The notes under the pieces were generated by a model that was not told where the DNA came from, did not search any database, and saw nothing but the letters and a program-made list of their open reading frames with translations. From Anaeromyxobacteraceae bacterium (lineage in GTDB: Bacteria; Myxococcota; Myxococcia; Myxococcales; Anaeromyxobacteraceae): a stretch of DNA of 64,000 bases. The first letter of the stretch is position 1, and every line of letters starts with the position of its first letter. The stretch is from the NCBI GenBank assembly GCA_047602405.1, contig JASGHJ010000002.1, positions 1,568,001-1,632,000 on the forward strand. The letters run 5' to 3'. The translations under genes and the position numbers were made by a program. Positions 1 through 15,377 of the stretch are shown here, one piece after another.

Positions 1-124
1 CGCGAAGCTCGGCCTCGAGCGGGCGCCCGGGGCGCCCCCGGGGGCCCGGCCCCTCGATCCGACCGCCCGCAAGGATCACGTGAAGCCGGGCATCCTCGGC
101 CGCATGTTCGGGAGCAGGAAGTGA
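1..124 (+). CDS. 3' end of a protein of unknown function (partial)
   Basis: Frame 2 reads AKLGLERAPGAPPGARPLDPTARKDHVKPGILGRMFGSRK*; its TGA overlaps the GTG of the next gene (GTGA at 121-124). Confidence 0.55.
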   Translation, partial: AKLGLERAPGAPPGARPLDPTARKDHVKPGILGRMFGSRK

Positions 125-501
125 CGGACCGGGGGACCCCGCTCCTCGTGCTCGCCCACGGCGCGAGCTGGGAGGACCGCTACCAGGCGGTCACGGTCGC
201 TGTCACGGCGGCCTCGCTCGGCGACCGGGTGGTGCTCGCGCTCTTCTTCGACCCCCTGCGGCGGCTCGTGGAGGGCCGGCTCGACGAGGGCGCCCCGCCC
301 TCGGCGGCCGCCGCGAAGGTGGGCGACCTCGGCGCGGCGCTCGAGGACGGCCGGGCGCTCGGGCTGGAGGTGGTGGCCTGCGAGACCGCGGTCCGGCTCG
401 CCGGGCTCGATCCGGAGGCCGTGCGCGGGAAGGTCGACCGGCTCGCGTCGCTCCCGTCGCTCTGGGCCTGGGCCCGTCACGGCCGCGTGGCGACCTTCTG
501 A
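121..501 (+). CDS. DsrE/DsrF-like (DrsE_2) sulfur-relay family protein
   Basis: 126 aa; 'AVTAASLGDRVVLALFFD' and 'GLEVVACETA' with the conserved Cys; C-terminal 'ATF' strand; sulfur-relay context. Confidence 0.65.
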   Translation: MTDRGTPLLVLAHGASWEDRYQAVTVAVTAASLGDRVVLALFFDPLRRLVEGRLDEGAPPSAAAAKVGDLGAALEDGRALGLEVVACETAVRLAGLDPEAVRGKVDRLASLPSLWAWARHGRVATF

Positions 502-503
502 CC

Positions 504-532
504 TTGCCCGCGCTCCGGGGGCGGGCTATAGG
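504..532 (+). promoter_or_regulatory. possible sigma70 promoter of the ThiF-TusA-ThiF unit
   Basis: TTGCCC-17 nt-TATAGG directly upstream of ATG 542. Confidence 0.35.
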
Positions 533-541
533 CGGCGGACG

Positions 542-1264
542 ATGGCGCTCTCCGGAAAGACGGCGCTCGTGGTCGGCGCGGGTGGGCTCGGTGGCCCGGC
601 GCTGCTCACGCTCGCGGCGGCCGGCATCGGCCGGCTCGTGGTGGTGGACTCCGACGCGGTCGACACGACCAACCTCGCGCGGCAGCCGCTGTTCGGCGAG
701 GCCGACGTCGGCGCGCGCAAGGCGGACGCGGCCGCGGCGACCCTGCGCCGGCTCTTCCCCGAGCTCGCGGTGGACGCGGTCGACGACCGCATCACCGCGG
801 GCAACGCCGAGCGGTACCTCGGCGCGGCGGACCTCGCCCTCGACGGCACCGACAACTTCGCCTCGAAGTTCGCGCTCTCCGACGCGGCGATGCGGGTGAA
901 GAAGCCCCTCATCCACGGCGGCGTGCTCCGCACCACCTTCCAGATCCTCACCATCGCGCCCGCGGGCCTGGGCGGCTGCCTCCGCTGCCTGTTCGAGGGG
1001 CCGCCGCCGGACGGTGCGGTCCCGGCGTGCGCCGACGCCGGCGTGCTCGGGGCCCTCGCCCAGGCGGCCGGGAACCTGATGGCCGCCGAGGCGATCCGCC
1101 TGCTCGAGGGCGAGCGGGGCGCGTACGAGGGGCGGCTCCTGACCTACGAGGCGAGGAGCGCGCGCGGGCGGCTCGTGCTCGTTCGGCGCCGGCAGGACTG
1201 CCCCGGCTGCTCGCCGGCGGCGCTCGCGCCGAAGGCGGCGACCGCCGGGGGGACCGCGGCGTGA
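542..1264 (+). CDS. HesA/MoeB/ThiF family E1-like adenylyltransferase (active-type ATP motifs, no N-terminal RYxRQ segment)
   Basis: VVGAGGLG nucleotide-binding loop, D-x5-TNLARQ, K of 'RKA', DGTDNF, CLRC and CPGC zinc motifs, ACADAG Cys. Confidence 0.9.
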   Translation: MALSGKTALVVGAGGLGGPALLTLAAAGIGRLVVVDSDAVDTTNLARQPLFGEADVGARKADAAAATLRRLFPELAVDAVDDRITAGNAERYLGAADLALDGTDNFASKFALSDAAMRVKKPLIHGGVLRTTFQILTIAPAGLGGCLRCLFEGPPPDGAVPACADAGVLGALAQAAGNLMAAEAIRLLEGERGAYEGRLLTYEARSARGRLVLVRRRQDCPGCSPAALAPKAATAGGTAA

Positions 1265-1527
1265 GCGCGGCGCTCGACCTCACCGGCTTCGCCTGCCCGA
1301 TGACCTGGGTGAAGACCCGCATCGCGCTCGACCGGCTCGGGCCGGGCGACCGGCTCGCGGTGCTGCTCGCCCGCGGCGAGCCCGCCGACAGCGTGCCGCG
1401 GAGCGCCGAGGAGGAGGGCCACCGGGTGGTCTCCCGCGCGGCGCTCGGCGGCGGGGCGACGTTCGAGGTCGTCATCGAGAAGGCGGCGGCGGAGCGCCCG
1501 CAGCCGGGAGGCATCACGTGGCCCTGA
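1261..1527 (+). CDS. tusA: TusA/SirA family sulfurtransferase
   Basis: GTG overlaps the upstream stop; LDLTGFACPMTWVKT is the TusA CPxP-like motif. Confidence 0.85.
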   Translation: MSAALDLTGFACPMTWVKTRIALDRLGPGDRLAVLLARGEPADSVPRSAEEEGHRVVSRAALGGGATFEVVIEKAAAERPQPGGITWP

Positions 1528-2213
1528 ACGATCTCCAGGTGGCGCGGTACGCGCGCCAGCTCCTCGTGCCCGGCTTCGGCGAGGCGGTCCAGGAGCGGCT
1601 GCTGCAGGCGCGGGTCTGGGTGGTGAACGCCGACGCCACCGCCGCCGCCGGGCTGGTCGCCCTCGTGCAGGCGGGCGTCGGGCGGATCTGGCTCGACGAC
1701 GACGAGCAGGTCGGGCCGTCGGACCGGGTGGGGTGGCTCTTCGGGCCCGGGGACGTCGGCCGCTCGCGGGTCGAGGCCGCGGTGGAGGCCCTCGGCCGCC
1801 TCTCGCTCCAGACCGCCATCGAGAAGAAGCCGGTCGGCGGCGTGCCGACCGCGGCGATCGTGTTCGCGTCCTCGGTCCCGATGGGCATCGGGGCAGGGGA
1901 CGTCGCGCGCAAGGCCGGCATCCCGCACGTGGTCGTGGAGCCCGACGCCGAGGGCGGCGCCGTGGTCTCCATCCCGCCCGGCCAGCCCTGCTTCACCTGC
2001 GGCCGGTCGGTCTCCGGGGTCGGGCGGCCGGCCCAGGCCGGCATCGCGGCCCTGTCGGCGCTCGCGGCGACCGAGCTCCTCCTCATGCTCGCCGATCCCC
2101 CCCAGGCGGTCGGGCGCCGGATCGACCTCGTCCGCGGCGTCCCGCACGTCCGGCCGACCGTCCGGGTGGCCGGCTGTGCCTGCGGCGGCGGGGCGAGCGC
2201 TCCCCCCGCCTGA
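1518..2213 (+). CDS. ThiF family protein with degenerate ATP site (keeps RYARQ)
   Basis: MALNDLQVARYARQLLVPGFGEAVQERL is a typical MoeB N-terminus; GxGxxG is replaced by VNADAT and NLxRQ is absent; CFTC and C-terminal CAC remain. Confidence 0.8.
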   Translation: MALNDLQVARYARQLLVPGFGEAVQERLLQARVWVVNADATAAAGLVALVQAGVGRIWLDDDEQVGPSDRVGWLFGPGDVGRSRVEAAVEALGRLSLQTAIEKKPVGGVPTAAIVFASSVPMGIGAGDVARKAGIPHVVVEPDAEGGAVVSIPPGQPCFTCGRSVSGVGRPAQAGIAALSALAATELLLMLADPPQAVGRRIDLVRGVPHVRPTVRVAGCACGGGASAPPA

Positions 2214-2412: not shown

Positions 2413-3114
2413 ATGGAGCTGCAGCGGGGCAGCGGGTTCGTGATCTGGCTCACCGGGATGAAGCGCGCGGGCAAGAGCACGCTCGCCGCGCTGCTCGCGA
2501 AGCGGCTCCTGGCCGCGGGCCACGAGGTGGAGCTGCTCGACGAGGACGGCGCCGCGTCGGTCCTCGTCGAGGGGCTCGGGATGTCGAAGGACGACCACGC
2601 GAAGGCGGTCGCCCGCATCGGCGTCGTGGCGAAGGCGGTCGCGAAGCTGGGCGGCGTGGCGGTCTGCGCCGCGCTCTCGCCCTACCGCGACGCGCGCGAC
2701 GGGCTGCGCCGCGAGGCGCGCCGGTTCTGCGAGGTGTTCGTCGACTGCGAGATGGAGGCGCTCCAGAAGCGCGATCCCGAGGGGCTCTACCGCCGCGCCC
2801 TCGCCGCGGAGATCACCCAGGTGCCGGGCGTGGACATCCCCTACGAGCCGCCCGGGCACCCGGAGGTCGTCGTCCGCTCCGACCAGGTGTCGCCGGAGGA
2901 GGGCGCCCAGCGCGTCTTCCAGGCGCTCGTGGACGCGCGGCTCATCGGCCCGACCGAGTTCGGCCGGCTGACCGGCGGGCTCCGCCCGAAGCGCGGCAAG
3001 CCCGCCGCGGCGAAGCCGGGCGCGAAGGGCGCCGGCGCGAAGCCCGCGACGAAGGGCGCGAAGAAGGCCGCGGCGAAGAAGCCCGCGAAGCCCGCGAAGG
3101 GCAAGCGCCGCTGA
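2413..3114 (+). CDS. cysC: adenylyl-sulfate kinase with Lys/Ala-rich C-terminal tail
   Basis: IWLTGMKRAGKSTLA P-loop, SPYR, RDPEGLY, GVDIPYEPP; GGAGG ribosome-binding site before ATG 2413. Confidence 0.85.
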   Translation: MELQRGSGFVIWLTGMKRAGKSTLAALLAKRLLAAGHEVELLDEDGAASVLVEGLGMSKDDHAKAVARIGVVAKAVAKLGGVAVCAALSPYRDARDGLRREARRFCEVFVDCEMEALQKRDPEGLYRRALAAEITQVPGVDIPYEPPGHPEVVVRSDQVSPEEGAQRVFQALVDARLIGPTEFGRLTGGLRPKRGKPAAAKPGAKGAGAKPATKGAKKAAAKKPAKPAKGKRR

Positions 3115-3176: not shown

Positions 3177-4037
3177 ATGACGGCAGGCCCCGAAGATCTC
3201 GAGGCGGTGCGCCGCGGCTCGGCGGACCGCCTCGCGCGCATGCGGTCCGCGCTGGCGGGCCTGGACGGCGCGCTCGTCGCCTTCTCCGGCGGCGTCGACT
3301 CGACCTTCGTGCTCGCGGTCGCCCGGGAGGTGCTCGGGGACCGCGCCGTGGCCCTGACCGCCCACTCGCCCTCCGTCCCCGCCGCGGAGCGCGAGGAGGC
3401 CCGCCGGCTCGCCGCCCGCCTCGGCGTGCGCCACCTCGAGCGCACGAGCCGCGAGGGCGACGACCCCCGCTACCGCGCGAACCCGGTCGACCGCTGCTAC
3501 TTCTGCAAGGACGAGCTCTACCGGCTCTGCGAGGGGGTGGCCCGCGAGGAGGGCCTCGCCGCGATCCTCGACGGCTTCAACGCCGACGATCACCGCGACC
3601 ACCGCCCGGGTCGGCGCGCCGGGCTCGAGCACGGCGTGCGCTCGCCGCTCTCCGAGGCGGGGCTCACGAAGCTCGAGGTGCGGGCCTGGAGCGCCGCCCT
3701 GGGCCTGCCGACCTGGGACAAGCCGCAGATGGCCTGCCTCGCCTCCCGCATCCCGTACGGCACCGAGGTCACCCCCGAGCGGCTCGCCCGCGTCGAGGCG
3801 GCCGAGGCGGCTCTGCGCGGGATGGGCTTCCACGATCTGAGGGTCCGCTACCACGGCGACCTCGGACGCGTGGAGCTCGGCGAGGCCGAGCTCGAGGAGG
3901 GCTTCCGGCGTCGCGGGGAGCTCGTGGCCGCGGTGAAGGGGGCCGGCTTCAAGCTCGCCGTGCTCGACCTCGAGCCCTTCCGGTCGGGCCGCATGAACGC
4001 GCTCGCCGGCGTCGCGCTCCCCGTGGTCGCGCCGTGA
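3177..4037 (+). CDS. larE: LarE family ATP-dependent sulfur insertase (PP-loop)
   Basis: AFSGGVDS PP-loop, NPVDRCYFCK, DG-NADD-RPG, WDKP-ACLASRIPYG, RVRYHG. Confidence 0.92.
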   Translation: MTAGPEDLEAVRRGSADRLARMRSALAGLDGALVAFSGGVDSTFVLAVAREVLGDRAVALTAHSPSVPAAEREEARRLAARLGVRHLERTSREGDDPRYRANPVDRCYFCKDELYRLCEGVAREEGLAAILDGFNADDHRDHRPGRRAGLEHGVRSPLSEAGLTKLEVRAWSAALGLPTWDKPQMACLASRIPYGTEVTPERLARVEAAEAALRGMGFHDLRVRYHGDLGRVELGEAELEEGFRRRGELVAAVKGAGFKLAVLDLEPFRSGRMNALAGVALPVVAP

Positions 4038-12088: not shown

Positions 12089-12204
12089 GGATCCGGGCAG
12101 CGTACTACGAGGGCGGCCGCGGCGTGCACTCGGAACCGGGGGGGTGCCTTCTCGGCCGGGCCGCCCCGTGAGACGCTTTCGCCCGGAGGTCGGCGGTGAC
12201 GTCC

Positions 12205-14492
12205 ATGGATGCACGAAAGTGGCTTTCCACGGTGGGCGGCGGGGTCCGCGCCGCGTTCGTCGAGAACCGGTCGAATCCTCTCCATGGAGGAGTGGCTGAA
12301 GGTCTTCCTGGACGACCCCCGCCGACAGGCCCGGGGCGCCGCCCAGTACCTCAGGGACGTGTTCGACCACTACGGCTCCGAGGAGCGCGAGACCCCGGTC
12401 GGCCGGGTCCGGCGCTGGGCGTCTTTCGATCTGCCGTTCGAGCCGGGCGCCCGGGCGCAGCGGGTGGCGGGCCAGGAGGAGGTCCAGGCCGCCATCTACC
12501 GCGCGCTCGGCGGCTTCGTGCGCTCGGGCCGGGTGGACCGGCTTATCCTGCTCCACGGGCCGAACGGCTCGGCGAAGTCGTCCATCGTCGGGGCGATCCT
12601 GAAGGCGATGGAGCACTACTCCCACGAGAAGGAGGGTGCGCTCTACCGGTTCCACTGGGTCTTCCCGAGCGACCGGACGCTGAAGGGCGGCGGGCTGGGC
12701 TTCGGCGGCGGCGCGCGGAGCGGGGAGGGCGACCTCGTCACCTTCGCGCACCTCGACGGCGACGCGCTCGACGCGCGCCTGTCCTGTCCGATGAAGGACC
12801 ACCCGCTCCTGCTCGTCCCGAAGCCGGCGCGCCGGAAGCTCCTCGAGGAGGCCTGCCGGCCGTCGGGCAGGGAGGGCGCGGGCGCGGCCGGGGCTGCCCC
12901 ACCCGAGGCACAGCCCGACTTCGTGCTGGCCGAGCACCTGCTCGAGGGCGAGCCGTGCCACTGCTGCCGCCGAATCCACGACGCGCTCCTCGGCGCCTAC
13001 CAGGGCGACTGGCTGAAGGTCATGCGCCACGTCCAGGTGGAGCGGTTCTACGTGTCGGCGCGGTACCAGCAGGCCGCCTCCACGGTCGAGCCCCAGCTCA
13101 CCGTCGACGCGGGGGCCCGGCAGGTGACCGCCGACCGGAGCACGGCCGCGCTGCCTCCGGCGCTCCACGCCCTCTCGCTCGTCGAGCCGAACGGGCCGCT
13201 CGTCGCCGGCAACCGCGGCGTCATCGAGTACTCCGATCTGCTGAAGCGCCCGCTCGAGCACTTCAAGTACCTGCTCGGCGCGAGCGAGACCGCCAAGGTC
13301 TCCCTCGACGCCTTCGTGCTGCAGCTCGACCTCGTGCTCATCGCGAGCGCGAACGAGAAGCAGCTCGCGGCCTTCAAGGAGTCGCACGAGTTCGCCTCCT
13401 TCAAGGGGCGGCTCGAGCTCGTGCGCGTGCCGTACCTCCGGCGCGCGTCGGTGGAGCAGGAAATCTACGACCGGCAGATCACGCCCGCCGCGGTGGGCAA
13501 GCACGTCGCGCCCCACGCGACCGCGGTGGCGGCGCTCTGGGCGGTGCTCACCCGCCTGAAGCGCCCGATCCCGGAGCGCTACACCGGGGAGCTCCGCGCC
13601 CTCGTGGGGGAGCTCGCGCCGCTCGAGAAGCTCCGGCTCTACGACGCCGGCGCCGCGCCCGACCGGCTGACCCTCGCGCAGGCCCGGCTGCTCCGGTCGC
13701 ACTCGACGGACCTCTACCGCGAGTCGGACGTCTACCCTGCGTACGAGGGCCGCAGCGGCGCCTCCGCCCGCGAGGTCAAGACCGCGCTCCTGCACGCCGC
13801 GCAGGCGACGGCCACGCGCTGCCTCACGCCCGTCGCGGTGCTCGAGGAGCTCCAGGCGCTCTGCCGCGACAAGACCGTCCACGACTTCCTGCAGCAGGAG
13901 GTGGTCGAGGGCTACCACGACCACGAGGAGTTCGTGCGGGTCGCCGAGGCCCGGTACCTCGACACCATCGACGAGGAGATCCGCGACTCGATGGGGCTCG
14001 TGACCGAGGGGCAGTACCGCGAGCTCTTCGGCCGCTACGCCGCGCTCGTCTCGAGCTGGCTCAAGGGCGAGAAGGTCCAGAACCGGGTGACCGGCGCCCA
14101 CGAGCCGCCCGACGAGGGGCGGATGACCGAGTTCGAGGGCATCGTGATGCCGCCGGGCGAGGACCGGGGCGCGTTCCGCCGAGGCCTCGTCTCGGCCATC
14201 GGCGCCTTCCGGCTCGACCACCCGGACGCGAAGGAGATCGACTACGTCGCGATCTTCCCCGACCTCTTCCGCCGGCTGCGCGAGCACACCTACGAGGAGC
14301 GCAAGCGGCAGATCCGCCGGACCCGCGAGGACGTGCTCCGGTACCTCTCCGACGAGCGCGACCGCCTCGAGGAGAAGGCGCGGCGCCACGTCGAGGAGAC
14401 CGTCCGGCGGATGCGCGACCGCTACGGCTACTGCGAGCACTGCGCCCAGGACGCGCTGCCTCTTCCTGATGCGCAGGAGGTACGACGGGTAG
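12205..14492 (+). CDS. prkA: PrkA/YeaG family AAA+ serine protein kinase (frameshifts at ~12274 and ~14459)
   Basis: LILLHGPNGSAKS, CPMKDHPL, GNRGVIEYSDLLK, G.SAR, C-terminal YGYCEHCA..L.F; three frames join into one protein. Confidence 0.85.
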
Positions 14493-14540
14493 GCCCCCGG
14501 CCCGGGAATGGCGGGCGGGCGCCCCCGTGTTCGCGAGGAC

Positions 14541-15377
14541 GTGCGAAAGCCCAGCCCCCGCCAGCGCCCCCCCGGGCGCCCGCTCGCCCGTCTGCTCGCC
14601 GTCGTCCTCGCGTTCCTCCCCGCCGCGGCCCTCGCCGCGAACCCCCGCTCCAGCACCGTCCACCGGGTCTTCCCGAGCGCGGTCCGGGTCCAGGTGCTCG
14701 CCGGCGGCAAGGTGGTGCGCTCCGCCTCCGGCATCGCCTTCGCCCGGGAGGGCGAGCGCACGGCGGTCCTCACGAACGCGCACGTGGTGGAGCCCGCGCC
14801 GGGCGGGACGGCCATCGAGGTCCGCGTCCTCCTCGAGGGACGGGAGCCGGTCCCGGCCCGCCTCCTCGCCGCGGGGCAGGTCGAGGTGAACGACCTCGCC
14901 GTGCTCGAGGTGTCGCTCCCGCTCCCGGTGACGCCGCTCGCGCCGGACGAGGCCCTCGAGCTCGGCGACGACCTCGTCGTGATCGGCGCGCCGTTCGGCA
15001 AGGGGCTCTCGGTCGCGGCCGGCATCGTCTCGCAGGTCGAGTACGAGCTCGCCGAGAACGCGGCGGCGCCGCGGCGCCCGCGTGCGCTCAAGACCGACGC
15101 GGCCATCGGCTACGGGAGCTCCGGCGGCGGGGTCTTCGACGTCCCGGCCGGCCGCCTCGTGGGGCTCGTGGAGGGCTACCGCACGGCGCGCGTGGCGTTC
15201 GGGAAGGACCCGGACCGCTACGCGTTCGACGTGCCGATGCCCGGCGAGACCTTCGTGGCCCCGGCCGCGAAGATCCGCGGGTTCCTGAGGGCGCAGGGCC
15301 TGGGACGGCTCGCAGGCGACGGGCCGACCGGCCCCGCCGGCGGGCTCGCCGTGCCGGCGGCGACCACGGGGATGTGA
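14541..15377 (+). CDS. exported trypsin-like (S1) serine protease without PDZ domain
   Basis: Signal peptide; TNAHVV, DLAVL, TDAAIGYGSSGGG triad motifs. Confidence 0.85.
   Translation: MRKPSPRQRPPGRPLARLLAVVLAFLPAAALAANPRSSTVHRVFPSAVRVQVLAGGKVVRSASGIAFAREGERTAVLTNAHVVEPAPGGTAIEVRVLLEGREPVPARLLAAGQVEVNDLAVLEVSLPLPVTPLAPDEALELGDDLVVIGAPFGKGLSVAAGIVSQVEYELAENAAAPRRPRALKTDAAIGYGSSGGGVFDVPAGRLVGLVEGYRTARVAFGKDPDRYAFDVPMPGETFVAPAAKIRGFLRAQGLGRLAGDGPTGPAGGLAVPAATTGM

Follow-up and report, generated by a model that had tools for sequence, protein, structure and literature searches.

Near the beginning of a 64,000-nucleotide stretch of DNA from an Anaeromyxobacteraceae bacterium (positions 1,568,001 to 1,632,000 of contig JASGHJ010000002.1, assembly GCA_047602405.1; hereafter the window), two genes of the ThiF/MoeB family, here called ThiF-1 and ThiF-2, flank a gene for the sulfurtransferase TusA, which overlaps both the ThiF-1 stop and the ThiF-2 start. 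ThiF-1 retains a complete adenylation site and lacks the N-terminal helix that carries the arginine finger of MoeB; ThiF-2 retains the helix and has lost the site. From their sequences we infer that the two proteins bind each other and quite probably constitute a heterodimeric E1 (activating) enzyme for sulfur carriers, with one active site. The case is built on the anatomy of the two genes, their linkage and conservation, their joint decay and one fusion protein.

Complementary losses in ThiF-1 and ThiF-2

The adenylation motifs of ThiF-1 were all located in its 240 residues: GAGGLG (residues 12-17), NLARQ (44-48), K60, DGTDN (101-105), two CxxC pairs (146-149 and 220-223) and the crossover-loop Cys163. 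Its alignment with ThiF runs over the whole length, is free of insertions and places in the protein the equivalents of MoeB Gly41, Arg73, Lys86 and Asp130, residues whose roles are treated in passages of PMC12355090 and PMC7527816. Across 101 orthologues, which were selected for the presence of NLxRQ, residues G12, G14, G17, D38, N44, R47, Q48, K60, D101, D104, C146, C149, C163 and C220 are invariant. What is missing is the whole 28-residue N-terminal segment and not just its arginine: the match to the Pfam ThiF profile (PF00899) runs from profile position 21 to 237 of 238, placing the start of the protein at the first β-strand.

A mis-called start of ThiF-1 was considered and rejected. The reading frame is open 5′ of position 542 but contains no ATG, GTG or TTG before it, and the RYxRQ helix is absent from the orthologues as well. 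Because a finger-like motif lies within 150 nucleotides upstream, in any frame, at only 1 of 102 ThiF-1 loci, the start is not mis-called. Upstream of the gene lies a promoter-like element; in the same family, elements of the form TTG-N17-21-GNTATR precede ThiF-1 at 21 of 33 loci versus 0.06% in shuffled sequences, and the one at 504-532 was not listed in a strict sigma-70 scan. Judged by the position of this element, the ThiF-1 transcript would have a short leader or none.

ThiF-2 is the mirror image. Its ARYARQ helix occupies residues 9-14, and its match covers positions 1-93 of the Pfam ThiF profile. In the alignment to MoeB, which spans MoeB residues 4-108, Arg13 falls on MoeB Arg14. NADATA stands where GxGxxG stood, DRVGW where NLxRQ stood, and the crossover-loop cysteine is absent. 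The zinc site is kept (CxxC 158-161 and CxC 220-222), its cysteines being present in 120 of 120 close homologues. No single chain at this locus holds both the Arg-finger helix and the catalytic site, the helix being on ThiF-2. Both proteins score above the Pfam PF00899 cut-off, and neither reaches any NCBIfam MoeB or ThiF cut-off. The possibility that one gene has been broken in two was rejected, as both proteins span the fold from strand 1 through the last helix. An earlier description of the window, made from its letters alone (the original prediction), had given ThiF-1 its full ATP site, two CxxC motifs, crossover-loop cysteine, start at the first strand and upstream promoter-like sequence, and ThiF-2 its helix and lost motifs, with tusA between the two; all of this agrees with what we found.

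The long branches and large deletions of ThiF-2 might suggest a decaying duplicate that is carried along by synteny. In 120 close homologues, however, ThiF-2 is intact, with about 60% identity over its whole length; R10 is present in 120/120, R13 in 119/120 and the first glycine of the P-loop in 116/120. Since it is conserved end to end in these proteins, ThiF-2 is not a pseudogene. Its predicted structure is confident and has the full MoeB fold (predicted local distance difference test score, pLDDT, 94.7; template modelling score, TM, 0.88 to 1jw9_B), and three of its segments are common to 12 families. On this pattern of conservation, decay of a duplicate is close to refuted.

Those three segments emerge when the comparison is widened to 101 diverse ThiF-2 sequences, where conservation narrows to residues 1-30, 41-53 and 171-192 and the middle of the protein, with the ATP- and carrier-binding regions, varies or is missing. 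R13 is invariant among these sequences by the way they were selected. The mean share of the most frequent residue is 0.5-0.7 in the Arg-donating helix versus 0.23-0.4 in the NLxRQ surface on which such a helix would dock; the helix is conserved and its receiving surface is not, so the helix needs the site of another protein. An independent set, the best 150 of 1.84 billion representatives, found with a profile that favours such proteins (one was read by eye), contains 146 proteins without NLxRQ, and all 146 keep the finger arginine. The shortest forms, of 87-95 residues (L030, L156, L176), consist of the three conserved helices and little more. Helices 41-53 and 171-192 correspond to the MoeB dimer core. 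The logic of complementarity holds independently of this correspondence: the ThiF-1 site is invariant without a helix, and the ThiF-2 helix persists without a site.

Linkage, joint decay and fusion of the two genes

The original prediction proposed strict co-occurrence across Myxococcota as a check, and the two genes do travel together. Of the three outcomes that it named as refuting, two are contradicted by the data: ThiF-1 orthologues have no RYxRQ N-terminus, and the two genes are not found independently of each other. ThiF-2 lies within three genes of a helix-less E1, chosen by Pfam profile range alone, at 78 of 79 evaluable loci: 24/24 among 30 relatives (one more locus lies at a contig edge, and L037, another protein, was left out), 46/47 in 91 genomes where the ThiF-2 score was weak (genome G037 and 46 out of 63 listed candidates) and 8/8 in 68 genomes of other classes. 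Conversely, a ThiF-1-type gene stands upstream of ThiF-2 at 52 of 52 loci from a search of 301 genomes, a figure that includes three repeats of earlier loci, two loci cut by contig ends and five second copies with a dead ThiF-1. The carrier genomes are kin, and these counts are not independent trials. A clean, intact pair is present in 107 genomes of 9 families and 54 genera; six further genomes have the pair with a frameshift or at a contig edge, and eight more loci add three families, one ThiF-2 among them looking frameshifted. Orphan ThiF-2 genes were found in 3 of 33 genomes searched, each beside a ThiF-1 that is frameshifted, split between contigs or decayed. The split pair is a phylum-wide trait of Myxococcota. 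Records from Myxococcus, Corallococcus, Pyxidicoccus, Citreicoccus, Hyalangium and Archangium are among its carriers. At one locus (L253, G052:C336) the order is ThiF-1, ThiF-2, tusA, and this arrangement may have a separate origin.

ThiF-1 genes that have lost NLxRQ, and are in this sense dead, occur at 10 loci. The finger arginine of ThiF-2 is kept at 121 of 121 loci with an intact ThiF-1 and is lost at three of the ten dead ones (L090, and L139 and L140 of one genus, where the helix is deleted); at a fourth, L247, the helix is scrambled, and the other six keep the arginine. TusA is also gone from all four dead loci that are still within the operon, and is therefore tied to ThiF-1 catalysis, with the caveat that tusA is also missing from intact loci in four families. 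Several genera keep a second copy of the pair with no evident active site, in which the two genes are adjacent, tusA is absent and ThiF-1 lacks NLxRQ (L035, L036, L082, L084, L088, L089, L090).

A 386-residue protein, P0229, joins the two halves in one chain: an inactive domain with an RYSRH motif and, behind a linker, an active domain beginning at strand 1, to which the ThiF-1 sequences align from its first strand. The domain order, ThiF-2-like and then ThiF-1-like, is the reverse of the gene order in the operon, and P0229 is for this reason not a read-through of this operon type. It was found by an exhaustive search; no second fusion was present among the relatives of P0229 searched, its DNA context yielded no locus, and a weaker search with the ThiF-2 alignment returned no longer fused forms at E ≤ 1e-20. 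The predicted structure of P0229 is unreliable in the N-terminal domain, where the pLDDT is below 50, the input alignment having covered the C-terminal domain only. Mean-field covariation between ThiF-1 and ThiF-2 did not exceed that of shuffled pairings, with a top inter-protein z of 7.8 versus 5.0-8.3 in three shuffles (101 paired rows, effective number 47). Fusions with operon neighbours also occur: ThiF-1-TusA in L012, ThiF-2-JAB in L122, L128, L134, L136, L177, P0131 and P0202, and carrier-ThiF-2 in P0123. A ThiF-1-carrier fusion is also represented in the set L012, L033, L122, L128, L134, L136, L177, P0123.

The pair probably arose by duplication of a single operon MoeB followed by complementary loss, which is the simplest reading. 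In three genomes of another order of the class (G257, G132, G253), ThiF-2 is absent and the same operon carries a single full-length MoeB, which in G253 has a frameshift. In the first of two quick trees, ThiF-1 forms one clade (support 93) that is sister to the full-length operon MoeB (88). ThiF-2 forms one long-stemmed clade with a support of 99 in both quick trees, and a clade of ThiF-1 plus ThiF-2 is not rejected (approximately unbiased test, p-AU 0.587).

Operon context and the proposed reaction

The fuller form of the operon reads (Rrf2, CysK)-ThiF-1-TusA-carrier-ThiF-2-(cysteine synthase)-JAB-CysC-LarE. Many relatives have a GG-ending carrier of the ThiS/MoaD family between tusA and ThiF-2; by BLAST, which missed the divergent carrier of G204, it is present at 51 or more of the 107 clean loci. 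TusA is found at 93 of these loci, JAB at 69 and a cysteine synthase at 27, and CysC and LarE (counts in Table 1) stay linked to the pair even where the cysteine genes are lost. The second cysteine synthase reaches neither the CysK nor the CysM cut-off. With the sulfur-carrier cysteine pathway of CysO, CysM, Mec and MoeZ, the fuller operon shares carrier, JAB protease, E1 and cysteine synthase; the names CysO, CysM and Mec serve here as analogies for genes whose profile labels are ThiS, PALP and Prok-JAB.

Table 1. Features of the locus, in coordinates of the window
Feature	Position	Strand	Basis
Promoter-like element TTGCCC-N17-TATAGG	504..532	+	Sequence; 9 nucleotides 5′ of the ThiF-1 ATG
ThiF-1, putative catalytic E1 adenylation subunit without N-terminal Arg-finger helix	542..1264	+	240 residues; Pfam ThiF 197 bits
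ThiF-1 Cys163, crossover-loop cysteine	1028..1030	+	101/101 sequences; aligned with the ThiF crossover-loop Cys region
TusA sulfurtransferase, CPMT motif	1261..1527	+	Pfam TusA 58.8 bits
ThiF-2, inactive E1-fold subunit with Arg-finger helix	1518..2213	+	231 residues; Pfam ThiF 46 bits
ThiF-2 Arg13, putative arginine finger, equivalent to MoeB Arg14	1554..1556	+	Alignment to MoeB RYNRQ
APS (adenosine 5′-phosphosulfate)-kinase-like gene (CysC), conserved neighbour	2413..3114	+	Pfam APS_kinase; 100/107 loci
LarE-family sulfur transferase, conserved neighbour	3177..4037	+	TIGR00268 above cut-off; 94/107 loci
DsrE-like gene, directly 5′ of ThiF-1	121-501	+	No Pfam match; DsrE clusters 0.91-0.93

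Around the pair, CysC has a promoter-like site of its own at 2353-2380; in its product the P-loop is unusual (GMKRAGKST) and the tail is rich in Lys and Ala. The DsrE-like gene, separated from ThiF-1 by the promoter-like element, is a neighbour at 34 of 36 loci and in this family only. Before it, a gene that combines a PilZ-like with a DnaK-like domain begins ahead of the first base of the window and ends at position 124 (+ strand; C2 ~1565900-1568124), and a further DnaK-like gene lies near 12200-15106 on the − strand.

Unlike the cysteine-pathway operons, the locus in this genome has lost carrier, JAB gene and cysteine synthases. The original prediction had noted that no GG-ending carrier was visible in the window and had left the substrate open. 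There is indeed no such gene beside ThiF-1 and ThiF-2 in the window, and an orthologue of the operon carrier is absent from this genome (the best match, at another locus, is 35% identical); what changes the picture is the carrier that relatives keep within the operon. The genome-wide search for MoaD, ThiS and JAB genes that the same text proposed returned a ThiS-ThiG fusion (C2:2736096-2737064, −), a MoaD-MoaE fusion (C2:3016304-3016957, +) and a JAB gene (C2:488379-488846) 47% identical to the operon type. As the GG is internal in both fusions, these carriers would need a JAB protease. At C1:1741392-1742758 (+) a GG-ending gene of the ThiS/MoaD family is followed by a beta-propeller-like gene, a pairing that recurs in G020 (L201). 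The genome also has a third GG-ending protein, a full-length MoeB and a TcdA-like gene.

Genome G171 (one contig, 100% complete) is informative on function. ThiF-1 and ThiF-2 are its only ThiF-family genes over the cut-off, and its sole ThiS-family gene sits in a thiS-thiG-thiE cluster; because of these two facts, the pair probably acts as ThiF in this genome.

We propose the following model. ThiF-1, a site without a helix, and ThiF-2, a helix without a site, would form a heterodimer that has a single functional site. ThiF-2 would occupy the position of the second MoeB subunit, with helices 1-30, 41-53 and 171-192 packed on ThiF-1 and Arg13 reaching the ATP phosphates in the ThiF-1 site. The pair would adenylate GG-ending sulfur-carrier proteins, and TusA, likely the sulfur donor in place of a rhodanese domain, would pass persulfide sulfur, possibly via ThiF-1 Cys163, to give the carrier thiocarboxylate. 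Where the operon is full, the cysteine synthase would probably use, and the JAB protease recycle, the neighbouring ThiS/MoaD-family carrier. In genomes that have lost this carrier, the present one included, the pair probably acts on ThiS or MoaD, and the ThiS and MoaD fusions are its likely clients in this genome.

ThiF-2 could instead be a scaffold for another operon product (carrier, JAB protease or cysteine synthase) or an inhibitor of the E1, its complementarity to ThiF-1 being coincidental. Its fusions to the JAB protease at several loci and its in-frame position behind the carrier in P0123 point that way, as do the second copies in which both genes look dead and yet remain adjacent (L035, L082, L084, L088, L089, L090). 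However, ThiF-2 persists in this window after carrier, JAB gene and cysteine synthase have all left the operon, the regions that it loses are those for carrier and ATP binding, and an inhibitor would have no reason to retain the finger arginine only while ThiF-1 is alive. We consider such a role improbable.

Several points weigh against the heterodimer itself or against parts of its history: (i) the arginine finger is described in passages of PMC13139853, citing Lake 2001, as non-essential in MoeB and ThiF, TcdA has none, and the R59A substitution lowers Tcd1 activity by just 26%; (ii) in G037 (95% complete) the operon E1 has no Arg motif and ThiF-2 was not found in the genome; this E1, unlike ThiF-1, retains about 25 residues of the N-terminal segment, and it falls outside the ThiF-1 clade in one tree and nearest to the ThiF-1 of family f3 in another; (iii) genes of one operon can occur together for many reasons, and related genomes are not independent observations; (iv) at 7 of the 10 dead-ThiF-1 loci there is still an arginine in the ThiF-2 helix, and the three losses amount to about two independent events; (v) P0229 is a single sequence from one 14-kb contig; (vi) ThiF-1 is not one clade in the second quick tree or in a careful tree (0% of bootstrap trees); and (vii) since this genome has a full-length MoeB, the pair need not be its sole activator. 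The first two weaken the word obligate, which the original prediction had attached to the heterodimer.

The same two bear on the alternative that ThiF-1 is active alone, as a homodimer without an arginine finger, with ThiF-2 as an optional stabiliser or tuner and the heterodimer not obligate or not the main form; a short UBA5 that is active without its N-terminal extension, reported in passages of PMC2888440, would be a precedent. An optional part should, however, be lost often, and ThiF-2 is missing beside ThiF-1 at 1 of 79 loci; ThiF-1 lacks the whole N-terminal segment and not merely its arginine, and Arg13 is retained in all 146 ThiF-2-type proteins of the independent set. This makes an autonomous ThiF-1 unlikely. 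Within the heterodimer, as the finger is reported to be non-essential in MoeB and ThiF, the importance of ThiF-2 may, by analogy with yeast Tcd1, lie less in donating an arginine than in completing the dimer.

Relation to known E1 enzymes

With MoeB, ThiF, MoeZ and Uba4 the pair shares the fold (TM 0.84-0.88 to 1zud and 1jw9), the catalytic residues, the zinc site, the crossover-loop cysteine, GG-ending carriers and an arginine supplied in trans. GxGxxG, NLxRQ, the lysine and the Mg-binding aspartate of MoeB and ThiF are found in ThiF-1 and not in ThiF-2. Passages of PMC7527816 and PMC13139853 describe how the N-terminal arginine of MoeB, ThiF and Uba4 completes the site of the partner subunit, and a trans-acting arginine is likewise reported for Tcd1/Tcd2 (PMC13139853) and BilD (passages of PMC10557695). 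Those homodimeric enzymes derive two identical subunits and two sites from one gene, whereas here neither gene is complete, a single site is expected, and TusA stands in for the rhodanese domain, which is absent. Operon types 4c and 4e of PMC1779556 also combine a rhodanese-less E1 with SirA/TusA and APS kinase; they have one E1 per operon, and a split E1 is not mentioned in the passages that treat them.

At the level of sequence, NAE1-UBA3 and SAE1-SAE2 show the same division of inactive and active adenylation domains between two genes, with the finger arginine on the inactive one. ThiF-2 matches SAE1 and NAE1 (E ~1e-5 to 6e-5) and ThiF-1 matches SAE2 and UBA3. The pair lacks the catalytic-Cys half-domains and the ubiquitin-fold domain of those enzymes, and ThiF-1 is far closer to MoeB/ThiF (5e-35) than to eukaryotic E1s (3e-13). 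The parallel drawn in the original prediction holds for the split of the adenylation module and not for the conjugation parts: the pair would work like the adenylation module of NAE1-UBA3 and SAE1-SAE2 and is not a member of that family, and the likeness is limited to that module and does not extend to protein conjugation. Because both genes are far closer to MoeB/ThiF, the resemblance appears convergent.

A heterodimer that mainly ligates a ubiquitin-like protein to other proteins through ThiF-1 Cys163, in the manner of sampylation or urmylation, would extend the parallel. Cys163 is invariant, the carrier at L117 exceeds the NCBIfam SAMP1 cut-off (67.9 vs 60), and the operon JAB gene resembles a desampylase, below the cut-off. 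Against this, no E2 (conjugating-enzyme)-like gene was recognised among the conserved neighbours, where no search aimed at E2 was made; the neighbour set of TusA, cysteine synthases, APS kinase and LarE matches the sulfur-transfer operon types 4c/4e in passages of PMC1779556, and the corresponding cysteine of MoeB and ThiF forms no thioester according to passages of PMC13139853. Protein ligation as the main role is very improbable.

Two systems come closer to the heterodimer that we propose. BilD, in passages of PMC10557695, is the bacterial E1 of the anti-phage BilABCD system, and its inactive domain gives Arg9 to one active site, in the domain order of P0229; it is a single chain with an 80-residue Cys domain that works with an E2 in protein conjugation, whereas ThiF-1 and ThiF-2 are two genes in a metabolic operon, and ThiF-1 matches the BilD-type structure 8tyz_A weakly, over residues 6-74 only. 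Yeast Tcd1-Tcd2, in passages of PMC13139853, is a heterodimer of ThiF-family duplicates with one active centre, to which the inactive partner contributes a non-essential arginine finger and stability. It is eukaryotic, acts on tRNA and keeps both proteins at full length; here the proteins are bacterial, the helix is deleted from one and the other shrinks to about 90 residues. A literature search did not turn up any account of such a two-gene E1 in bacteria, with the proviso that the pair may be mentioned in Burroughs, Iyer and Aravind 2009, the principal survey of this family, or in its supplement. Known bacterial E1-like enzymes are homodimers, with the single-chain BilD as the exception, according to passages of a 2023 preprint (PMC10557695). 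Inactive ThiF-2-like proteins with the Arg helix also occur in records named Candidatus Binatia and Vicinamibacterales, and the inactive subunits in Binatota suggest that the split E1 is more widespread or arose more than once. P0212, P0215, P0239 and a number of Atlas clusters are ThiF-2-like inactive proteins from such records, some with only partly decayed motifs.

MoeB is symmetric and has two sites, whereas the E1s of ubiquitin, SUMO and NEDD8 are asymmetric and have one; the transition between the two is commonly assigned to the ancestors of eukaryotes. We think it likely that bacteria independently evolved a eukaryote-style split E1, turning a housekeeping MoeB into an active and an inactive, Arg-donating subunit on two genes, with the stages (single gene, split pair, inactive subunit of about 90 residues, inactive-active fusion and joint decay) coexisting side by side in living Myxococcota. 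If so, hundreds of ThiF-2 proteins now named adenylyltransferases or hypothetical would need re-annotation, and ThiF-1 expressed alone may look inactive. The origin of asymmetry would become testable with small proteins in the cultured and tractable genera Myxococcus, Corallococcus and Anaeromyxobacter, where one could ask what an inactive half must keep, whether the arginine finger or the interface drives its retention, and whether asymmetry came before conjugation.

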